Source: a virus (taxonomy: Duplodnaviria > Heunggongvirae > Uroviricota > Caudoviricetes). Taken from it: a DNA stretch of 6,417 nt. This document shows positions 1 through 6,417 of the stretch, one piece after another. The notes beneath the pieces were generated by a model. It was not told the origin of the DNA and searched no databases. It saw only the letters and a list, made by a program, of their open reading frames with translations. Position numbers and translations under genes: made by a program. The stretch lies in IMG/VR virus record IMGVR_UViG_2706794662_000009; one strand, given 5' to 3'. How positions within the stretch are numbered: position 1 is the first letter of the stretch; every line of letters begins with the position of its first letter.

Positions 1-86
1 CTCCAATGACTAGTCTAAAAACTAGTATTAAGACTATCACTTATTTAAGTGATACTGGTTGTCTGGAGATTCAGGGGGCCAGTCTA
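1..86 (-). mobile_element. Terminal 86 bp of an IS2 element (left end, IRL, adjacent to the insC/orfA start); element body extends leftward out of the window
   Basis: Positions 1-86 are, from my recall, the reverse complement of the IS2 left end (TAGACTGGCCCCCTGAATCTCCAGACAACCAATATCACTTAAATAAGTGATAGTCTTAATACTAGTTTTTAGACTAGTCATTGGAG), with one apparent mismatch near position 55. In IS2 the insC start follows a few bp beyond the last matching base, so it would lie just outside the window. Not verified by alignment. Confidence 0.75.
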
Positions 87-235
87 CCACCCCTGATGTC
101 AGGTAGGAAAACACCATATGTTTCTGCTCTGTTTTTCCTTAGAAATAGGCATCCTTGCTGGAACAAAGCGAGCAGCTATATTGACTCTATGTTGTGAGTG
201 TGTTGATCCGTTCTGAGTTAATACATTTAAGTTGC

Positions 236-1345
236 TCACTCTGTTTCTGCTATCCATTCCGGGATTTTTGCCTCAAGCTCAAGCTGCGTGGTAAAGCCGC
301 TGTTATCAATGGTGTGCTCGGCTTTTGCAATAATCCAGTCCTGATTATCAATCTCGCTTTTAAATCCTGTTACCGTGCCATGCATTTCGGGGTAGAGTTC
401 TGCACGTCCATGCGCCAGTGTGATGGAGAATGATGCGGCTCCGCGTTGTAGCTGCTGCCACTTTGCCGCCGCTGCACGTCTTGCTGCCTGCTCGTTCTGA
501 TAAGTTTTGCGTAACACAAACACGTTGCCTTCCGCACCTTCCATATAGTCGCCTTCCCGGCTGCTGCTTTTCTCCTTTTTTGGTTTTGACGGTTTGCGGC
601 GTTTCACGCTGACTTTTTTCTTTTTCCCGTAATTAAGATCAAGCCAGTAAGCGCGTACCCCCGTATACGCTTCGCGGTCAGCAATGCGGAACTGATGGCG
701 ATCGCCGCTGCTGCGTGTGATGGCGAACGAGGGCAACGGCTGGCCCTGTGCGTTCACGCCACCACCGGGCATGATGAATAACAGATTACCGCTTTTTACC
801 GTGGTGATTGCGCCCAGCATTTCCGCCATGCGCGTAAGGAAGGACATGTCGCTTTCTTCGGTCTGGTCGGCGTGGTCGATTTCGATATCCATCAGCATTT
901 CGCTGATTTGCGGTTTCAGACCATACCGATGAGCGATGGCGGATACCACACGCTCAACGGTCACATCATGCCAGGACACCTCACGTTTAACGTTAAATTC
1001 AGCCCGAAAATCTGCGCTTCTGGCTGAAACAGTCAGCCTGTCCGGCGGTCCTTCGTGAGCGATTTCATCAACAATGTAAGTGCCTTTTTCTGTCAGCGGT
1101 TCTCCCTTCCAGCCAATGAGAACCGTCAGGCGCGCGCCCCGTGGCGGTAGCTGCAACTGACCATCCGCATCATCCAGCGTGATGGTGAGCTGGTCCGCCT
1201 CAAATCCCCGGTTGTCGGTCAGTGACAGGCTCATCAGGCGCTCTGCCACGCCTGACAGCGTTTTACCCTCCGCGAGAATATCAAAATCCGGCATTTTCAC
1301 GGGGTCTGTGCCCTGACTGAGCAATTGCATGGTGGTGTCGGTCAT
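236..1345 (-). CDS. D: Phage tail protein D (P2 gpD / late control gene D family)
   Basis: Minus-strand ORF whose product (MTDTTMQLLSQGTDPVKMPDFDILAEGK...SLSLTDNRGFEADQLTITLDDADG...EGDYMEGAEGNVF...GFTTQLELEAK) resembles P2 gpD as I recall it, including a lysine-rich linker (KKKKVSVKRRKPSKPKKEK). Start chosen at the ATG at 1345, which follows GGGAGGGAG on the minus strand. The longer 413-aa ORF (start 1477) has a Pro/Ser/Thr/Arg-rich N-extension with no RBS. Stop TGA at 238-236. Confidence 0.88.
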   Translation of the reverse strand: MTDTTMQLLSQGTDPVKMPDFDILAEGKTLSGVAERLMSLSLTDNRGFEADQLTITLDDADGQLQLPPRGARLTVLIGWKGEPLTEKGTYIVDEIAHEGPPDRLTVSARSADFRAEFNVKREVSWHDVTVERVVSAIAHRYGLKPQISEMLMDIEIDHADQTEESDMSFLTRMAEMLGAITTVKSGNLLFIMPGGGVNAQGQPLPSFAITRSSGDRHQFRIADREAYTGVRAYWLDLNYGKKKKVSVKRRKPSKPKKEKSSSREGDYMEGAEGNVFVLRKTYQNEQAARRAAAAKWQQLQRGAASFSITLAHGRAELYPEMHGTVTGFKSEIDNQDWIIAKAEHTIDNSGFTTQLELEAKIPEWIAETE

Positions 1346-1502
1346 CTGCTCCCTCCCTGTGTGGCATGGTCGCATGTGCGTGCGGAGGGGGTTACTGCTT
1401 TTTGTTGTCGCCGTGGCGGGAGAATGGCGCAGGGGTGAGATTACGCGCGTGGTGGGTGATGATTGTTGCCGAATCATTTAACGGATACAAGGGGTTGAAG
1501 CT
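1346..1502. promoter_or_regulatory. Divergent intergenic region between D (leftward) and FI (rightward); presumed to contain promoters for both
   Basis: 157-bp non-coding spacer between two divergently oriented start codons. Contains the dyad ATGATT-N7-AATCAT (1459-1477), about 25-45 bp upstream of the FI ATG. No TGT-N12-ACA (P2 Ogr-type activator site) found by eye. No -10/-35 elements assigned. Confidence 0.3.
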
Positions 1503-2687
1503 ATGAGTGAAACTCGTTTTCATGGTGCCCGTGTTACGGAAAATACCGACCTGGTAACAGCGATTAACGATGTTGATTCCAGCGTTATCGGTATCGTGGC
1601 AACGGCGGATGATGCGGACGCGGAGCTGTTCCCGCTGAACAAGCCCACACTGCTGCCCCGCGTCAATGACGTGCTGGGAAAATGCGGAACAACGGGGACG
1701 CTTTATCGTGCGCTTAAGGCCATCGCAGACCAGGTGAGCACAAAGGTGATCGTCGTTCGCGTGGCTGAACACAAAGAAGAAGACGGAAAAACGCAGGATC
1801 AACTGGTTATCGGTGGTTCTGAATCTGACGGCAGCTATACGGGGATGTATGCGCTGCTTGTTGCAGAGCAGGATGAAAGCATCGGATACCGTCCGCGTAT
1901 TCTGGCCGCGCCGGAGCTGGACACGGAGGCGGTGACAAAATCCCTGTGCGTGATTGCGGGTAAACTGCGCGCGTTTGTGTATGCCTCATGTCATGACTGT
2001 AACACGATGGCTGAGGCAATTACCTACCGCCAGAAATTCAACGAACGTGAGGTGATGCTCTTATGGCCGGACTTCATCGCCTACAACCCGAAAAGTGGCA
2101 AAAACGAAACGTTCCCCGCGCCTGCCTATGCGTGCGGCCTTCGTGCGTACATTGACCATGAGCAGGGCTGGCACAAATCGCTGTCCAACGTTCCGGTTAA
2201 AAATGTGCTGGGGATGTCCAGGCATGTGTTCTGGTCGTTGCAGGCCGAAGACAGTGATGCCAACAGCCTCAACAACAAAGAAATCACGACCATTATTCGT
2301 CGCAACGGGTTCCGCTTCTGGGGCAACCGCACACCGGAAACGAACGCCTACATCTTTGAGGTGTATACCCGAACCGCACAGGTGCTGGCTGATTCAATTG
2401 CGGAAGCGCAGTTTGAAACCATCGACAGTCCACTGACGCCTGCGAACGTGAAGGATGTTATCGGTGCCATCAGGGCAAAACTGGATTCACTGGTTACTGC
2501 CGGGAAACTGATTGGGGCGTCGTGCTGGTATGACGTGGTGGATAACGGCACCACGAATTTACGTCAGGGGCGCGTGCGTATTCGCTACAAATATACGCCT
2601 GTTCCCCCGCTGGAAGACATGGAGCTTTACCAGTCGTTTACTGATGAATTCTTTGGTCCCGCATTTGCGGTGCTGGGAGGTGCCTGA
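1503..2687 (+). CDS. FI: Contractile tail sheath protein (P2 gpFI family)
   Basis: 394-aa ORF. Motifs such as DADAELFPLNKP, KLRAFVY, WPDF, EQGWHKSLSNV, IRRNGFRFWGNRT, YTRTAQV and YKYTPVPPLE match my recollection of P2 FI and other sheath proteins. AAGGGG RBS 8 nt upstream of the ATG. Stop TGA overlaps the FII start. Confidence 0.92.
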   Translation: MSETRFHGARVTENTDLVTAINDVDSSVIGIVATADDADAELFPLNKPTLLPRVNDVLGKCGTTGTLYRALKAIADQVSTKVIVVRVAEHKEEDGKTQDQLVIGGSESDGSYTGMYALLVAEQDESIGYRPRILAAPELDTEAVTKSLCVIAGKLRAFVYASCHDCNTMAEAITYRQKFNEREVMLLWPDFIAYNPKSGKNETFPAPAYACGLRAYIDHEQGWHKSLSNVPVKNVLGMSRHVFWSLQAEDSDANSLNNKEITTIIRRNGFRFWGNRTPETNAYIFEVYTRTAQVLADSIAEAQFETIDSPLTPANVKDVIGAIRAKLDSLVTAGKLIGASCWYDVVDNGTTNLRQGRVRIRYKYTPVPPLEDMELYQSFTDEFFGPAFAVLGGA

Positions 2688-3199
2688 TGGCTGTACCAAA
2701 ACATCTTCGCTTTTTTACGCTGTTTGTGGATGGTGAAAACGAAGTGGGTAAGGTGACGTCCGTCACTCTGCCTAAGCTGACGCGCAAAACCGACAGCTAC
2801 CGGGGTGGTGGCATGATGGGAGCGGTAAGTATTGATCTCGGCCTGGATGACTCCGCGCTTGATGCGAGCTTTGTCATGGGGGGCGCAGTTCGTGAGCTGT
2901 TCCTTAAGTATGGCGGCACGATTGACGGTACGCTGCTGCGTTTTGCGGGTGAATACTACACCGACGCTGAAAGCGACCTGTATGAAGTCGAAATGCGCGG
3001 ACGTGTGACGGAAATTGATATGGGGGAAGCCAAACAGGGCGAAGCCACATCACACACTTACGCCATTAAAAACACCTACTACAAGCTGAGTGTTAACGAT
3101 CGCCCGTTGTGGGAGATTGACCTGCTGAACTTCATTTACCGGAAGGACGGCAGGGACATTGTGCCCGATCGCATCCGTTCCGCGCTCGGGCTTGGCTGA
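2687..3199 (+). CDS. FII: Tail tube protein (P2 gpFII family)
   Basis: 170-aa ORF immediately after the sheath gene, with ATGA start/stop overlap. Product resembles P2 FII (VTLPKLTRK..YRGGGM..DLGLDD..RFAG..VEMRGR..KQGE). GGGAGGTG RBS upstream. Size and position are typical for a tube gene. Confidence 0.88.
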   Translation: MAVPKHLRFFTLFVDGENEVGKVTSVTLPKLTRKTDSYRGGGMMGAVSIDLGLDDSALDASFVMGGAVRELFLKYGGTIDGTLLRFAGEYYTDAESDLYEVEMRGRVTEIDMGEAKQGEATSHTYAIKNTYYKLSVNDRPLWEIDLLNFIYRKDGRDIVPDRIRSALGLG

Positions 3200-3253
3200 T
3201 AAGTAATATGCAGGCGGCGCAGTGCGTCGCCTCTGACTGAAAGGAGTTTCCTG

Positions 3254-3579
3254 ATGAAAGAGACGAAAAACATCGATACCGAAAACACGGTCGTTGCTGA
3301 CACTGTGAAAGAAACCAGTGAGCGTGGCGTAAAACTTACCCAACCAATTGAGCGAGGCGGCGAAAAAATCACGTATGTGGAGATCACCGGGGCTATTGAG
3401 CAGGCTGGATCTCTGCGAGATTTGTCGCTGTCTGATGTGCTGAATTTGAAAGCGGAATCCATGTTTACGCTGCTGTCACGCGTGACATCACCGCGACTGG
3501 ATGAAGTGACGATCAAAAAAATGGCATCCCGTGACTTTATTCAGTTATGTGTGGTTGCCGTAAATTTTTTGAGCGGTGC
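3254..3579 (+). CDS. E: Tail assembly chaperone E (P2 gpE family), 3' end lost in the assembly gap; encodes the E/E' frameshift site
   Basis: ORF starts at ATG 3254 with AAAGGAG RBS (3241-3247). It sits between tube and tape measure, the conserved position of the chaperone pair. Contains the slippery heptamer T-TTT-TTG at 3565-3571 in the correct phase. Sequence similarity to P2 E is weak from memory; the call rests mainly on synteny and the frameshift motif. Confidence 0.72.
3565..3571 (+). other. Putative programmed -1 ribosomal frameshift site (T TTT TTG) producing the E' extension
   Basis: In the E reading frame the codons are AAT TTT TTG, giving the heptamer T_TTT_TTG, the slippery sequence described for P2 E/E' and analogous to lambda G/GT. 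The -1 frame is open up to the gap. Confidence 0.6.
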
Positions 3580-3839
3580 NNNNNNNNNNNNNNNNNNNNN
3601 NNNNNNNNNNNNNNNNNNNNNNNNNNNNNNNNNNNNNNNNNNNNNNNNNNNNNNNNNNNNNNNNNNNNNNNNNNNNNNNNNNNNNNNNNNNNNNNNNNNN
3701 NNNNNNNNNNNNNNNNNNNNNNNNNNNNNNNNNNNNNNNNNNNNNNNNNNNNNNNNNNNNNNNNNNNNNNNNNNNNNNNNNNNNNNNNNNNNNNNNNNNN
3801 NNNNNNNNNNNNNNNNNNNNNNNNNNNNNNNNNNNNNNN
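3580..3839. other. Assembly gap or masked sequence (260 N)
   Basis: Uninterrupted run of N. Gap length may be an estimate, so reading-frame continuity across it is unreliable. Confidence 0.99.
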
Positions 3840-3840
3840 C

Positions 3841-6300
3841 CTGATGGGGCAGTTTGGTGACTCCATCCAGCGAACGCAGGGGGCGATCAAAAATCTCGAG
3901 CGTCAGGCGCGTTCATTTGAGCGCGCCCGTGACGCTGTCAGTAAAGCGGATGCGGGCATCGTGAAAGCACGACGCCAGCTTAACGCCCTTAATCAGTTAC
4001 AACGCACGGGTACAGTGCTCAGCGAAAAACAACAAAAGCTGATGCAGCAGTTAAGCACCCGGCTTGAACGCCTGAATGAATCGCGCACACGGGAAATTCA
4101 GAAAATGCGGGAACTTGGCGGAGAGCTGAAACGCCACGGCATTTCCCTGACAGGCAGCGATAACACCATCCAGCAGGCCATCAGACGCACCGGACAATAC
4201 AACAACCAGCTTGAACGCGAACGGCGGGCGCTTGCGCGTGTAACGCAGGCGCGTGAGCGGTATTCACGCGCGCAGGAAACAGCGGGAAAACTGAAAACAG
4301 GTGGTGCGCTGGCAACAGGTGCGGCGGCAGCGGGCGGCTATGCTGCCGGGCGTTTTTTGCAGCCCGCTATCGGGTTCGGGAAAGAGATGTCCCGTGTTCA
4401 GGCACTGACGCGAATCGATAAAAACAGCCCGCAGTTTAAGGCGCTGCGTGAGCAGGCGTTAAAACTTGGCTCTGAAACGCAGTTCACCGCAGGCGATGCC
4501 GCCAGTGGACAGGCATTTCTTGCAATGGCTGGTTTCACACCGCAGGCCATTCAGGCTGCGCTTCCCGGCGTGCTGAGCATGGCAACGGCTGGCGGTATGG
4601 ACCTCGGCGAGACGGCGGATATTGGTTCCAATATCCTGACGCAGTTCGGCCTCTCTGCTGACCAGATGGACCGGGTCGGTGACACACTTACCGCAGCGTT
4701 TACCCGTACCAACACTGACCTTCGCGCACTGGGCGAAACCATGAAATATGCAGGTCCGGTGGCGGGTAAGCTGGGAATATCGCTGGAGCAGGCCGCAGCG
4801 ATGGCGGGCGTGCTGGCGAAGATGGGTATCAGGGGGAGTGATGCAGGTACAGCGTTGCGTAAAAGCCTGGCCAATCTGTCATCACCGCCAAAGGCAGCGG
4901 CAGAAGCACTGAAAGAGCTGGGGGTGTCAGTTGCTGACGCCAAAGGCAAAATGCGCCCGATGGAGAATGTGCTGGCCGATCTCTATAAAGCCACCCGCAA
5001 ATACGGGGAGGTTGACCGGGTATCGTTCTTTAAGGACATTGCCGGAGAAGAGGCTTTCACATCATTTATGGGCCTCGTTGATGCGGCAGGTGACGGCTTC
5101 TTAGCCAAACTGAGAAAAGAACTTGAAGGCGCGCGCGGTGAGGCAGAACGCACGGCAAAGGTTATGGCCAATAACCTTGATGGCAACCTGAAATCACTCG
5201 GCAGTGCATGGGAAGGTCTGCGTATTCGCATCAGTGATCTGGTTGACGGTCCGCTGCGTTCTGTCACGCAGTGGCTCACGCGGGTTGTCTCAAAGGTGAC
5301 GGCGCTGGCGCAGGCCCACCCGGCACTGACGCGCCAGTTACTGATAGCGGGAGGCGCACTGCTGGCGACAACAGCAACGGTTGGTTCGTTGTCTCTGGTT
5401 ATTGGGGTGCTTCACGGGAAGCTGGCTACGTTGCGTCTCGGTTTTTCTCTCCTGACCGAATCAATGAATGTTGTCAGGGTTCTGCCTGCATTATGGGGAA
5501 TGGTGACGGGTTCCGTTTCTTTACTTGGTGGCGCTATCGGGGCGCTGTTCAGTCCGGTTAGTCTTATCGTGGCTGCGCTTGCCGGAGCTGCCGTTCTTAT
5601 CTGGAAATACTGGGATCCCATCAGGGCATTTTTTGCCGGGGTGTTCAGCGGGATTATGGAAAGGCTGACCCCGTTGCGCGAAACCTTTGAACGGTTTGGC
5701 CCTGTTTTTGATGTCGTGCGCGATGGGATTATTCAGGTCTTTAACTGGTTTAAATCGCTGCTGTCACCGATGGAGTCCAGCAAGGAAACGCTGGATAAAT
5801 GTGCCAGTGCTGGCGAGATATTCGGTAACGTTCTTGGCGGTGCGTTACAACTTGTTCTGACACCTGCAAAAATGCTACTGGATACGCTGGCGTGGATACT
5901 TGAAAAACTTGGCGTCCTTCCGGATGAAGCGGAAAGGGCGCGCAAGAAAATCGAAGACGCACAGCGTGCGGCCATTCTTCAGGACAAGGTTGCCTTGCTT
6001 CAGGGGGACCTGGCGAAAATCAATCCGCCGAAGCCTGTGGAAAATGGCAATGGCACCGGAGGTGATAAACCCAAAGACAACAAACCGCTCACAGACAGCA
6101 ATACCGGGACGCTACGCAGACTCAGCAAAATTGCTGATAACACAGGTAAGCTGGTTGATGAGACGAAAAAACGCATTGGCCCCGGCGATATTGTCTTTAA
6201 GAACCTGCCCCGCGCACTTGCTGTTCGTGGGGAGTGGCAGGAGCGGAAGATTGCGCAGGTCAGTAAGCCTGCCCCCGCAATTAATATCACACTGAGGTAG
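3841..6300 (+). CDS. T: Tail tape measure protein (P2 gpT family), 5' end in gap; 3' end runs into an IS element and is probably truncated
   Basis: About 820 visible codons. N-terminal part is charged and helical (Q/R/E/L-rich), followed by a Gly/Ala-rich region and hydrophobic segments (about 5320-5600), then a C-terminal region, all typical of tape measure proteins. Located after FI-FII-E as in P2. Start is either inside the gap or at ATG 3844. The last two codons and the TAG stop (6293-6300) lie within the inferred IS terminus. Confidence 0.88.
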   Translation: MMGQFGDSIQRTQGAIKNLERQARSFERARDAVSKADAGIVKARRQLNALNQLQRTGTVLSEKQQKLMQQLSTRLERLNESRTREIQKMRELGGELKRHGISLTGSDNTIQQAIRRTGQYNNQLERERRALARVTQARERYSRAQETAGKLKTGGALATGAAAAGGYAAGRFLQPAIGFGKEMSRVQALTRIDKNSPQFKALREQALKLGSETQFTAGDAASGQAFLAMAGFTPQAIQAALPGVLSMATAGGMDLGETADIGSNILTQFGLSADQMDRVGDTLTAAFTRTNTDLRALGETMKYAGPVAGKLGISLEQAAAMAGVLAKMGIRGSDAGTALRKSLANLSSPPKAAAEALKELGVSVADAKGKMRPMENVLADLYKATRKYGEVDRVSFFKDIAGEEAFTSFMGLVDAAGDGFLAKLRKELEGARGEAERTAKVMANNLDGNLKSLGSAWEGLRIRISDLVDGPLRSVTQWLTRVVSKVTALAQAHPALTRQLLIAGGALLATTATVGSLSLVIGVLHGKLATLRLGFSLLTESMNVVRVLPALWGMVTGSVSLLGGAIGALFSPVSLIVAALAGAAVLIWKYWDPIRAFFAGVFSGIMERLTPLRETFERFGPVFDVVRDGIIQVFNWFKSLLSPMESSKETLDKCASAGEIFGNVLGGALQLVLTPAKMLLDTLAWILEKLGVLPDEAERARKKIEDAQRAAILQDKVALLQGDLAKINPPKPVENGNGTGGDKPKDNKPLTDSNTGTLRRLSKIADNTGKLVDETKKRIGPGDIVFKNLPRALAVRGEWQERKIAQVSKPAPAINITLR

Positions 6301-6417
6301 CCTGAGTTTAACGGACACTCCTTCCTGAAATAGAATGGCATCAGAAGGAGCTAATAATGAGCAGAAAAACCCAACGTTACTCTAAAGAGTTCAAAGCCGA
6401 AGCTGTCAGAACGGTTC
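6293..6417 (+). mobile_element. Left end of an IS3-family insertion sequence (IS600-like), extending rightward out of the window
   Basis: Begins TGAGGTAGCCTGAGTTTAACGGACAC, which has the TG start and a GGACAC block at the same offset as the IS3 terminal repeat as I recall it. An orfA start follows 64 bp inside, the usual spacing for IS3-family elements. Exact boundary is uncertain by a few bp. Confidence 0.75.
6357..6417 (+). CDS. IS3-family transposase OrfA (helix-turn-helix N-terminal protein), 5' fragment; continues beyond the window
   Basis: Translation MSRKTQRYSKEFKAEAVRTV matches my recollection of the IS600 OrfA N-terminus. GGAG RBS at 6344-6347. Confidence 0.8.
   Translation, partial: MSRKTQRYSKEFKAEAVRTV

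Follow-up and report, generated by a model that had tools for sequence, protein, structure and literature searches.

The window analysed here, a stretch of 6,417 nucleotides from IMG/VR virus record IMGVR_UViG_2706794662_000009, carries a block of phage tail genes with the end of a different insertion sequence (IS) at either edge. Its features are listed below, with L numbers designating the genomic views to which it was compared.

1-86, minus strand: left (IRL, orfA-proximal) end of IS2, corresponding to IS2 nucleotides 1-86, the rest of the element extending leftward beyond the window edge.
87-91: CCACC, one copy of a 5-bp target-site duplication; CCACC stands at both IS2 ends in Shigella sonnei 53G and is single in empty sites.
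87-235, minus strand: the 149 bp next to gene D, out of a 225-bp intergenic spacer that extends from this gene to a PIN-domain gene; 100% identical to Escherichia coli O111 11128.
236-1345, minus strand: gene D (P2 gpD-like tail/late control D family), 369 aa, intact; Pfam PF05954 Phage_GPD, E=3.7e-17.
1503-2687, plus strand: tail sheath gene (FI-like), 394 aa; its exact protein matches the Pfam Phage_sheath_1 families.
2687-3199, plus strand: tail tube gene (FII-like), 170 aa; in relatives the identical gene matches PF04985 Phage_tube.
3254-3579, plus strand: 5' part of an E-like tail chaperone gene, which L004-L013 have at the corresponding position and which measures 121 aa in relatives; the remainder lies under an N mask.
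3580-3839: run of 260 N standing for 264 nt of ordinary sequence; the sequence to either side is 100% identical in L026, L007 and L019, which have 264 nt here.
3840-6300, plus strand: tape-measure gene T, truncated by IS600 after codon 842 of 935, as reconstructed from L007 and the window.
6291-6417, plus strand: left end of IS600, identical at 127/127 positions to copies annotated 'IS3-like element IS600 family transposase', with the orfA start at 6357.

Gene D, whose stop codon occupies 236-238, matches the PF05954 profile with 62.9 bits (cut-off 30.1) over profile positions 48-304 of 305, and its exact protein, recorded in 818 blocks of the collection index, is 369 aa long in all relatives. 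The mechanically derived ORF (236-1477) runs 44 codons further upstream, to 1477, than the 369-aa frame that the relatives all call. In E. coli O111:H- 11128 (L001 12152-13005), RefSeq represents D by a shortened 'VgrG/Pvc8 family' CDS and a pseudogene fragment, suggesting that O111 strains have a disrupted D, or one that is called differently, despite DNA that is 96-99% identical.

D and the sheath gene diverge from a 157-bp intergenic region (1346-1502), and D, sheath, tube, E and T have the same order and strands as in P88-like phages (Xuanwuvirus, Peduoviridae). DNA identity to these phages is 97.4-97.6% over D and the first block, 95-97% over the sheath block and 94.1% over T. The N run conceals the end of the E-like gene, a 51-aa GpE-family frame and the start of the tape-measure gene, the 264 nt beneath it being L007 12078-12341 and L026 3523-3786. 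Since the run is 4 nt short of the real sequence, reading frames drawn across the mask are shifted. The E/GpE-frame region is where P2-like phages make E+E' by frameshifting.

In the prophage of E. coli O111:H- 11128, D is followed by the same spacer, a gene for a 500-aa PIN-domain protein, an ogr/Delta zinc-finger gene, hok/gef and the host genes ihfA-pheT-pheS. The order D, PIN_4, Ogr_Delta, HOK_GEF, ihfA recurs in contigs encoding the exact sheath or D protein, and Pfam confirmed the PIN_4 and Ogr_Delta domains in the downstream genes of relatives. Judging from these comparisons, the phage segment of the window is a P88-like (Xuanwuvirus, P2-related) prophage adjoining ihfA. It resembles P88 and other Xuanwuvirus phages in the order D, sheath, tube, E, tape measure, in the divergence of D from the sheath gene and in having hok/gef near the prophage end. 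With the P2 late region (FI FII E T U D ogr attR) it shares the Phage_GPD, sheath, tube, GpE, GpU and Ogr_Delta families, and in both, ogr and the prophage end come after D. However, in P2 gene D comes after U on the same strand, whereas in this prophage D and the sheath gene are read away from each other and a PIN-domain gene intervenes between D and ogr. P2 is only an approximate, distant reference for this prophage. In one respect that comparison, drawn in the earlier note on this DNA, was apt: the note stated that ogr and the attachment-site end come after D in P2, and in the relatives both ogr and the prophage end are indeed found past D.

The PIN-domain gene (L007 5670-7172, minus strand; L004 7006-8508) encodes 500 aa, with PIN_4 at residues 10-151. 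The remaining approximately 350 aa of the protein gave no match in Pfam, nor did the protein match in PADLOC. As no PADLOC match was obtained, we do not assign the protein to a defence system. Its position and patchy distribution are reminiscent of the cargo/defence hotspots of P2-like phages. In CP060117.1 (L023 11336-12839) the gene is split into ORFs of 353 aa and 132 aa, suggesting pseudogenisation.

At 41.6% GC the spacer that separates this gene from D contrasts with the 54.5% of the phage part, so that its description as AT-rich in the earlier note, which had placed 149 bp of such sequence between IS2 and the end of D, holds in relative terms. Over window 87-300 there is complete identity to the O111 prophage, which is uninterrupted here, and homology ends precisely at 86/87. 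The spacer alone is present at an identity of at least 99% in 59 of 5426 complete E. coli genomes, and also in several S. sonnei genomes, where it matches the intergenic region downstream of D in uninterrupted prophages; a count of more than 1100 E. coli genomes reflects gene D, as against 59 for the spacer itself. No phage record among those searched contains the spacer: in P88 and other sequenced phages homology begins only at window position 210-225 or later, and the sequenced Xuanwuvirus phages differ from this prophage in having neither spacer positions 87-209 nor the PIN-domain gene. This distribution indicates that the spacer and the PIN gene constitute a variable cargo module inserted between D and ogr rather than conserved phage core. 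A discrete functional element within 87-235 was considered and rejected, because the sole Rfam match was at chance level (E=0.59, below its gathering score), RNA folding gave a z-score of -0.25 with no notable structure, and no terminator-like site was found; nor was a gene detected in this interval. The only good promoter-like site, TTGATA-16-TATTAT, is directed toward the PIN gene and, being located past the insertion point as seen from D, falls outside the window. In one genome alone, NZ_CP077442.1 (E. coli O111:H8 SF4-1), the spacer match ends at query position 120 (window 206), a hint that the 29 bp nearest to D may be variant there or carry a further interruption.

The left edge of the window is the end of an IS2 element. 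Compared in reverse complement to the left end of the copy annotated 'insertion sequence:IS2A' in E. coli K-12 (NC_000913.3 381260-382590), window 1-110 matches IS2 nucleotides 1-86 at 85 of 86 positions, and identity breaks off exactly at the IS2 terminus, TAGACTGG. The terminal inverted repeat of IS2 (5'-TAGACTGGCCCCCTGAATCTCC...) is present within 1-86 in reverse complement. The window edge lies 5 nt before the orfA start codon, identifying this end as the orfA-proximal one, with the body of the element pointing out of the window and its orientation being that of gene D. The assertion that an IS2 terminus lies at 86 and faces the phage segment is thus borne out. Of IS2, the window displays these 86 nt and one CCACC copy (87-91).

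The same insertion can be viewed in full in S. sonnei 53G, for which two assemblies were compared. One of them, ADUU01000015.1 (GCA_000188795.2; L007 and L017), we take to be 53G as well. The other is the complete chromosome HE616528.1 (L019) of S. sonnei 53G, a lineage II strain (PMC5447701). Both are 100% identical to window 1-3579 and 3840-6292, IS2 junction included. Window 1-86 is likewise 100% identical to the IS2 copy at this site in 53G, which shares the single substitution relative to K-12 IS2A. The 53G element is complete (L007 7254-8584, 1331 bp; orfA encodes 121 aa and orfB 301 aa), CCACC flanks both of its ends (L007 7249-7253 and 8585-8589; also seen in L019), and it agrees with IS2 (IS3 family), as annotated in K-12 (IS2A), in terminus, orientation, length, orfA/orfB and 5-bp duplication, with no substantive difference. 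Both assemblies also contain the reciprocal IS2 junction, ...GATTCTTACCACC/TGGATTTGCCCC... (the slash marking the boundary). From the insertion point it is 149 bp back to the D stop and 76 bp onward to the PIN start codon, and beyond IS2 the PIN gene, an 86-aa ogr ORF, hok and ihfA are all present. An empty site with a single CCACC was found in all 20 other views (L001 [O111], L004-L006, L008-L016, L018, L020-L023), which come from two look-ups that revisited many of the same genomes. The complete element, the CCACC at both ends and the intact downstream genes indicate a simple IS2 transposition in 53G in which no adjacent DNA was lost.

Why, then, do the downstream genes appear to be missing from the window? 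The window contains neither ogr nor an attachment-site end because it ends inside IS2. Its outermost 86 nt on the left belong to IS2 and approximately 125 nt on the right to IS600, and ending inside both IS copies marks it as an IS-bounded short-read contig, which says nothing of the sequence past either of them. Other contigs stop in a similar manner: Logan contig SRR29188552_365 (L026, 6262 nt), which equals window 58-6315 at 100% with 264 nt in place of the 260 N, ends 29 nt into IS2 and approximately 24 nt into IS600, as expected from a k=31 assembly breaking at repeats, and two IMG/VR contigs include no more than 41 nt of this IS2 copy. An exact-pattern scan of GTDB representatives and JGI metagenomes did not find the IS2/spacer junction, and complete E. 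coli genomes held neither this junction nor that between T and IS600. The absence of ogr and of the prophage end is evidently a contig-edge effect. While the earlier note rightly recognized the IS2 end, the spacer, the ogr gene expected after D and the two bounding IS elements, its proposal that the IS2 insertion, or a deletion mediated by IS2, removed this side of the prophage is not supported by the identical junction in 53G, where IS2 is complete, CCACC is duplicated and the PIN-ogr-hok-ihfA segment is intact. Indeed, the spacer matches uninterrupted prophages, a finding that the note itself had named as speaking against its interpretation.

At the opposite edge, the terminal sequence and the orfA start of the IS600 end are the same as in annotated copies. 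Since the element reads outward from the island, its orfA-proximal end, like that of IS2, abuts the tail genes and its body points away, just as the earlier note had described. The boundary between T and IS600 is ambiguous by 2 nt (6291-6293), with T homology stopping at 6292. The product of the truncated gene would be a protein of 844 aa ending in ...INITLR, as reconstructed by filling in 53G sequence under the N mask and joining it to the window. In a collection of 15 billion proteins this exact protein occurs in only three Logan contigs (5-10 kb class), all ending within the two IS copies and the longest being of 6262 nt, and a homology search with it returned only full-length cluster representatives. 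The T/IS600 junction was not found in GTDB representatives, IMG/VR or JGI metagenomes either. Loss of the last 93 T codons to IS600 should abolish tail assembly and render the prophage defective in this strain regardless of IS2. As a possible strain marker, the truncated T gene might identify a 53G-like S. sonnei sublineage or a laboratory derivative. Five other S. sonnei views (L005, L006, L009, L011 and L012) have no IS2 between D and the PIN gene, but carry one or two IS600 copies near the invertase and tail-fibre genes, around 16263-20512. The presence of IS600 elsewhere in the same prophage of other S. sonnei indicates that IS elements struck the prophage independently in different lineages.

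It is possible that the window derives from a rare strain type, represented by three sequencing runs, in which the 6.2-kb block from D through sheath, tube and E to the truncated T, with IS2 and IS600 facing outward, was cut off from the remainder of the prophage when IS elements mediated a deletion or recombined. If so, the block would be an isolated tail-gene remnant rather than part of a collinear, doubly interrupted prophage. We regard this as unlikely, and each of the two routes by which it could have come about as more doubtful still. The first is an IS2-mediated adjacent deletion, in which the PIN gene, ogr, hok, the prophage end and possibly host DNA were lost during or after insertion. 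IS-mediated deletions are common in Shigella, only one IS2 junction is seen in the window with nothing recovered beyond it for this strain, and a later adjacent deletion by IS2, or recombination between IS2 copies, would preserve exactly the junction observed. However, the same junction in 53G belongs to a complete IS2 with its 5-bp duplication and an intact PIN-ogr-hok-ihfA segment, and about 6 kb of the window matches 53G without a single difference. Neither a loss of adjoining sequence nor a missing target duplication, the hallmarks of adjacent deletion, is seen in 53G, whose two assemblies are the only genomes to show the far side of this IS2. Moreover, none of the 26 contigs (from 24 blocks) that are the longest for the exact D protein has IS2 beside D without the PIN gene behind it, and only a few kb further on come pheST, infC and thrS, essential genes that limit how far a deletion could extend. 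Taken together, these points leave an adjacent deletion with a low probability.

The second route, homologous recombination between IS copies, would have parted the 6.2-kb D-to-T block from the prophage by inversion or translocation without loss of DNA. S. sonnei genomes harbour many IS2 and IS600 copies, other S. sonnei carry IS600 in this very prophage, near the invertase and fibre genes, and the far ends of both IS copies are unconstrained in this strain. However, no positive evidence speaks for such an event, and the prophage is collinear in every genome that displays the far side of this IS2, which leaves recombination with a similarly low probability. Finally, a chimeric joining of an IS2 end to the phage spacer during assembly, conceivable for a short-read contig that ends in repeats, is scarcely credible, as two independent 53G assemblies (one of them complete), two IMG/VR contigs and one Logan contig all contain this junction, which also has the canonical target duplication.

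The most appealing scenario, to which we assign a probability of about 0.85, is an ordinary IS2 insertion into the spacer between D and the PIN gene in the P88-like prophage of a 53G-like (lineage II) S. sonnei strain, with the PIN gene, ogr, hok/gef and ihfA most likely still present beyond it. We infer that the far side of IS2 in the genome of origin is the same as in 53G. IS3-family elements transpose by a copy-out/paste-in route via a circular intermediate. IS2 entered the D/PIN spacer in the orientation of D and duplicated the pentanucleotide CCACC, and in a rare sublineage an independent insertion of IS600 into the tape-measure gene cost it its last 93 codons. The PIN gene, ogr, hok/gef, the prophage end and host ihfA would then remain past the 1331-bp IS2. 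The insertion is already known, since the published genome of S. sonnei 53G contains it. More generally, when a contig or window ends in an IS element, genes that seem to be absent beside it should not be read as deleted unless an assembly spans the element. Both insertions are typical of ordinary IS-driven prophage decay in Shigella, with which this locus shares several IS elements (IS2 and IS600) in one prophage, a truncated T gene and contigs broken at IS copies, and from which it does not differ. The IS2 insertion thus carries little biological weight of its own, being one more IS insertion in a decaying Shigella prophage.
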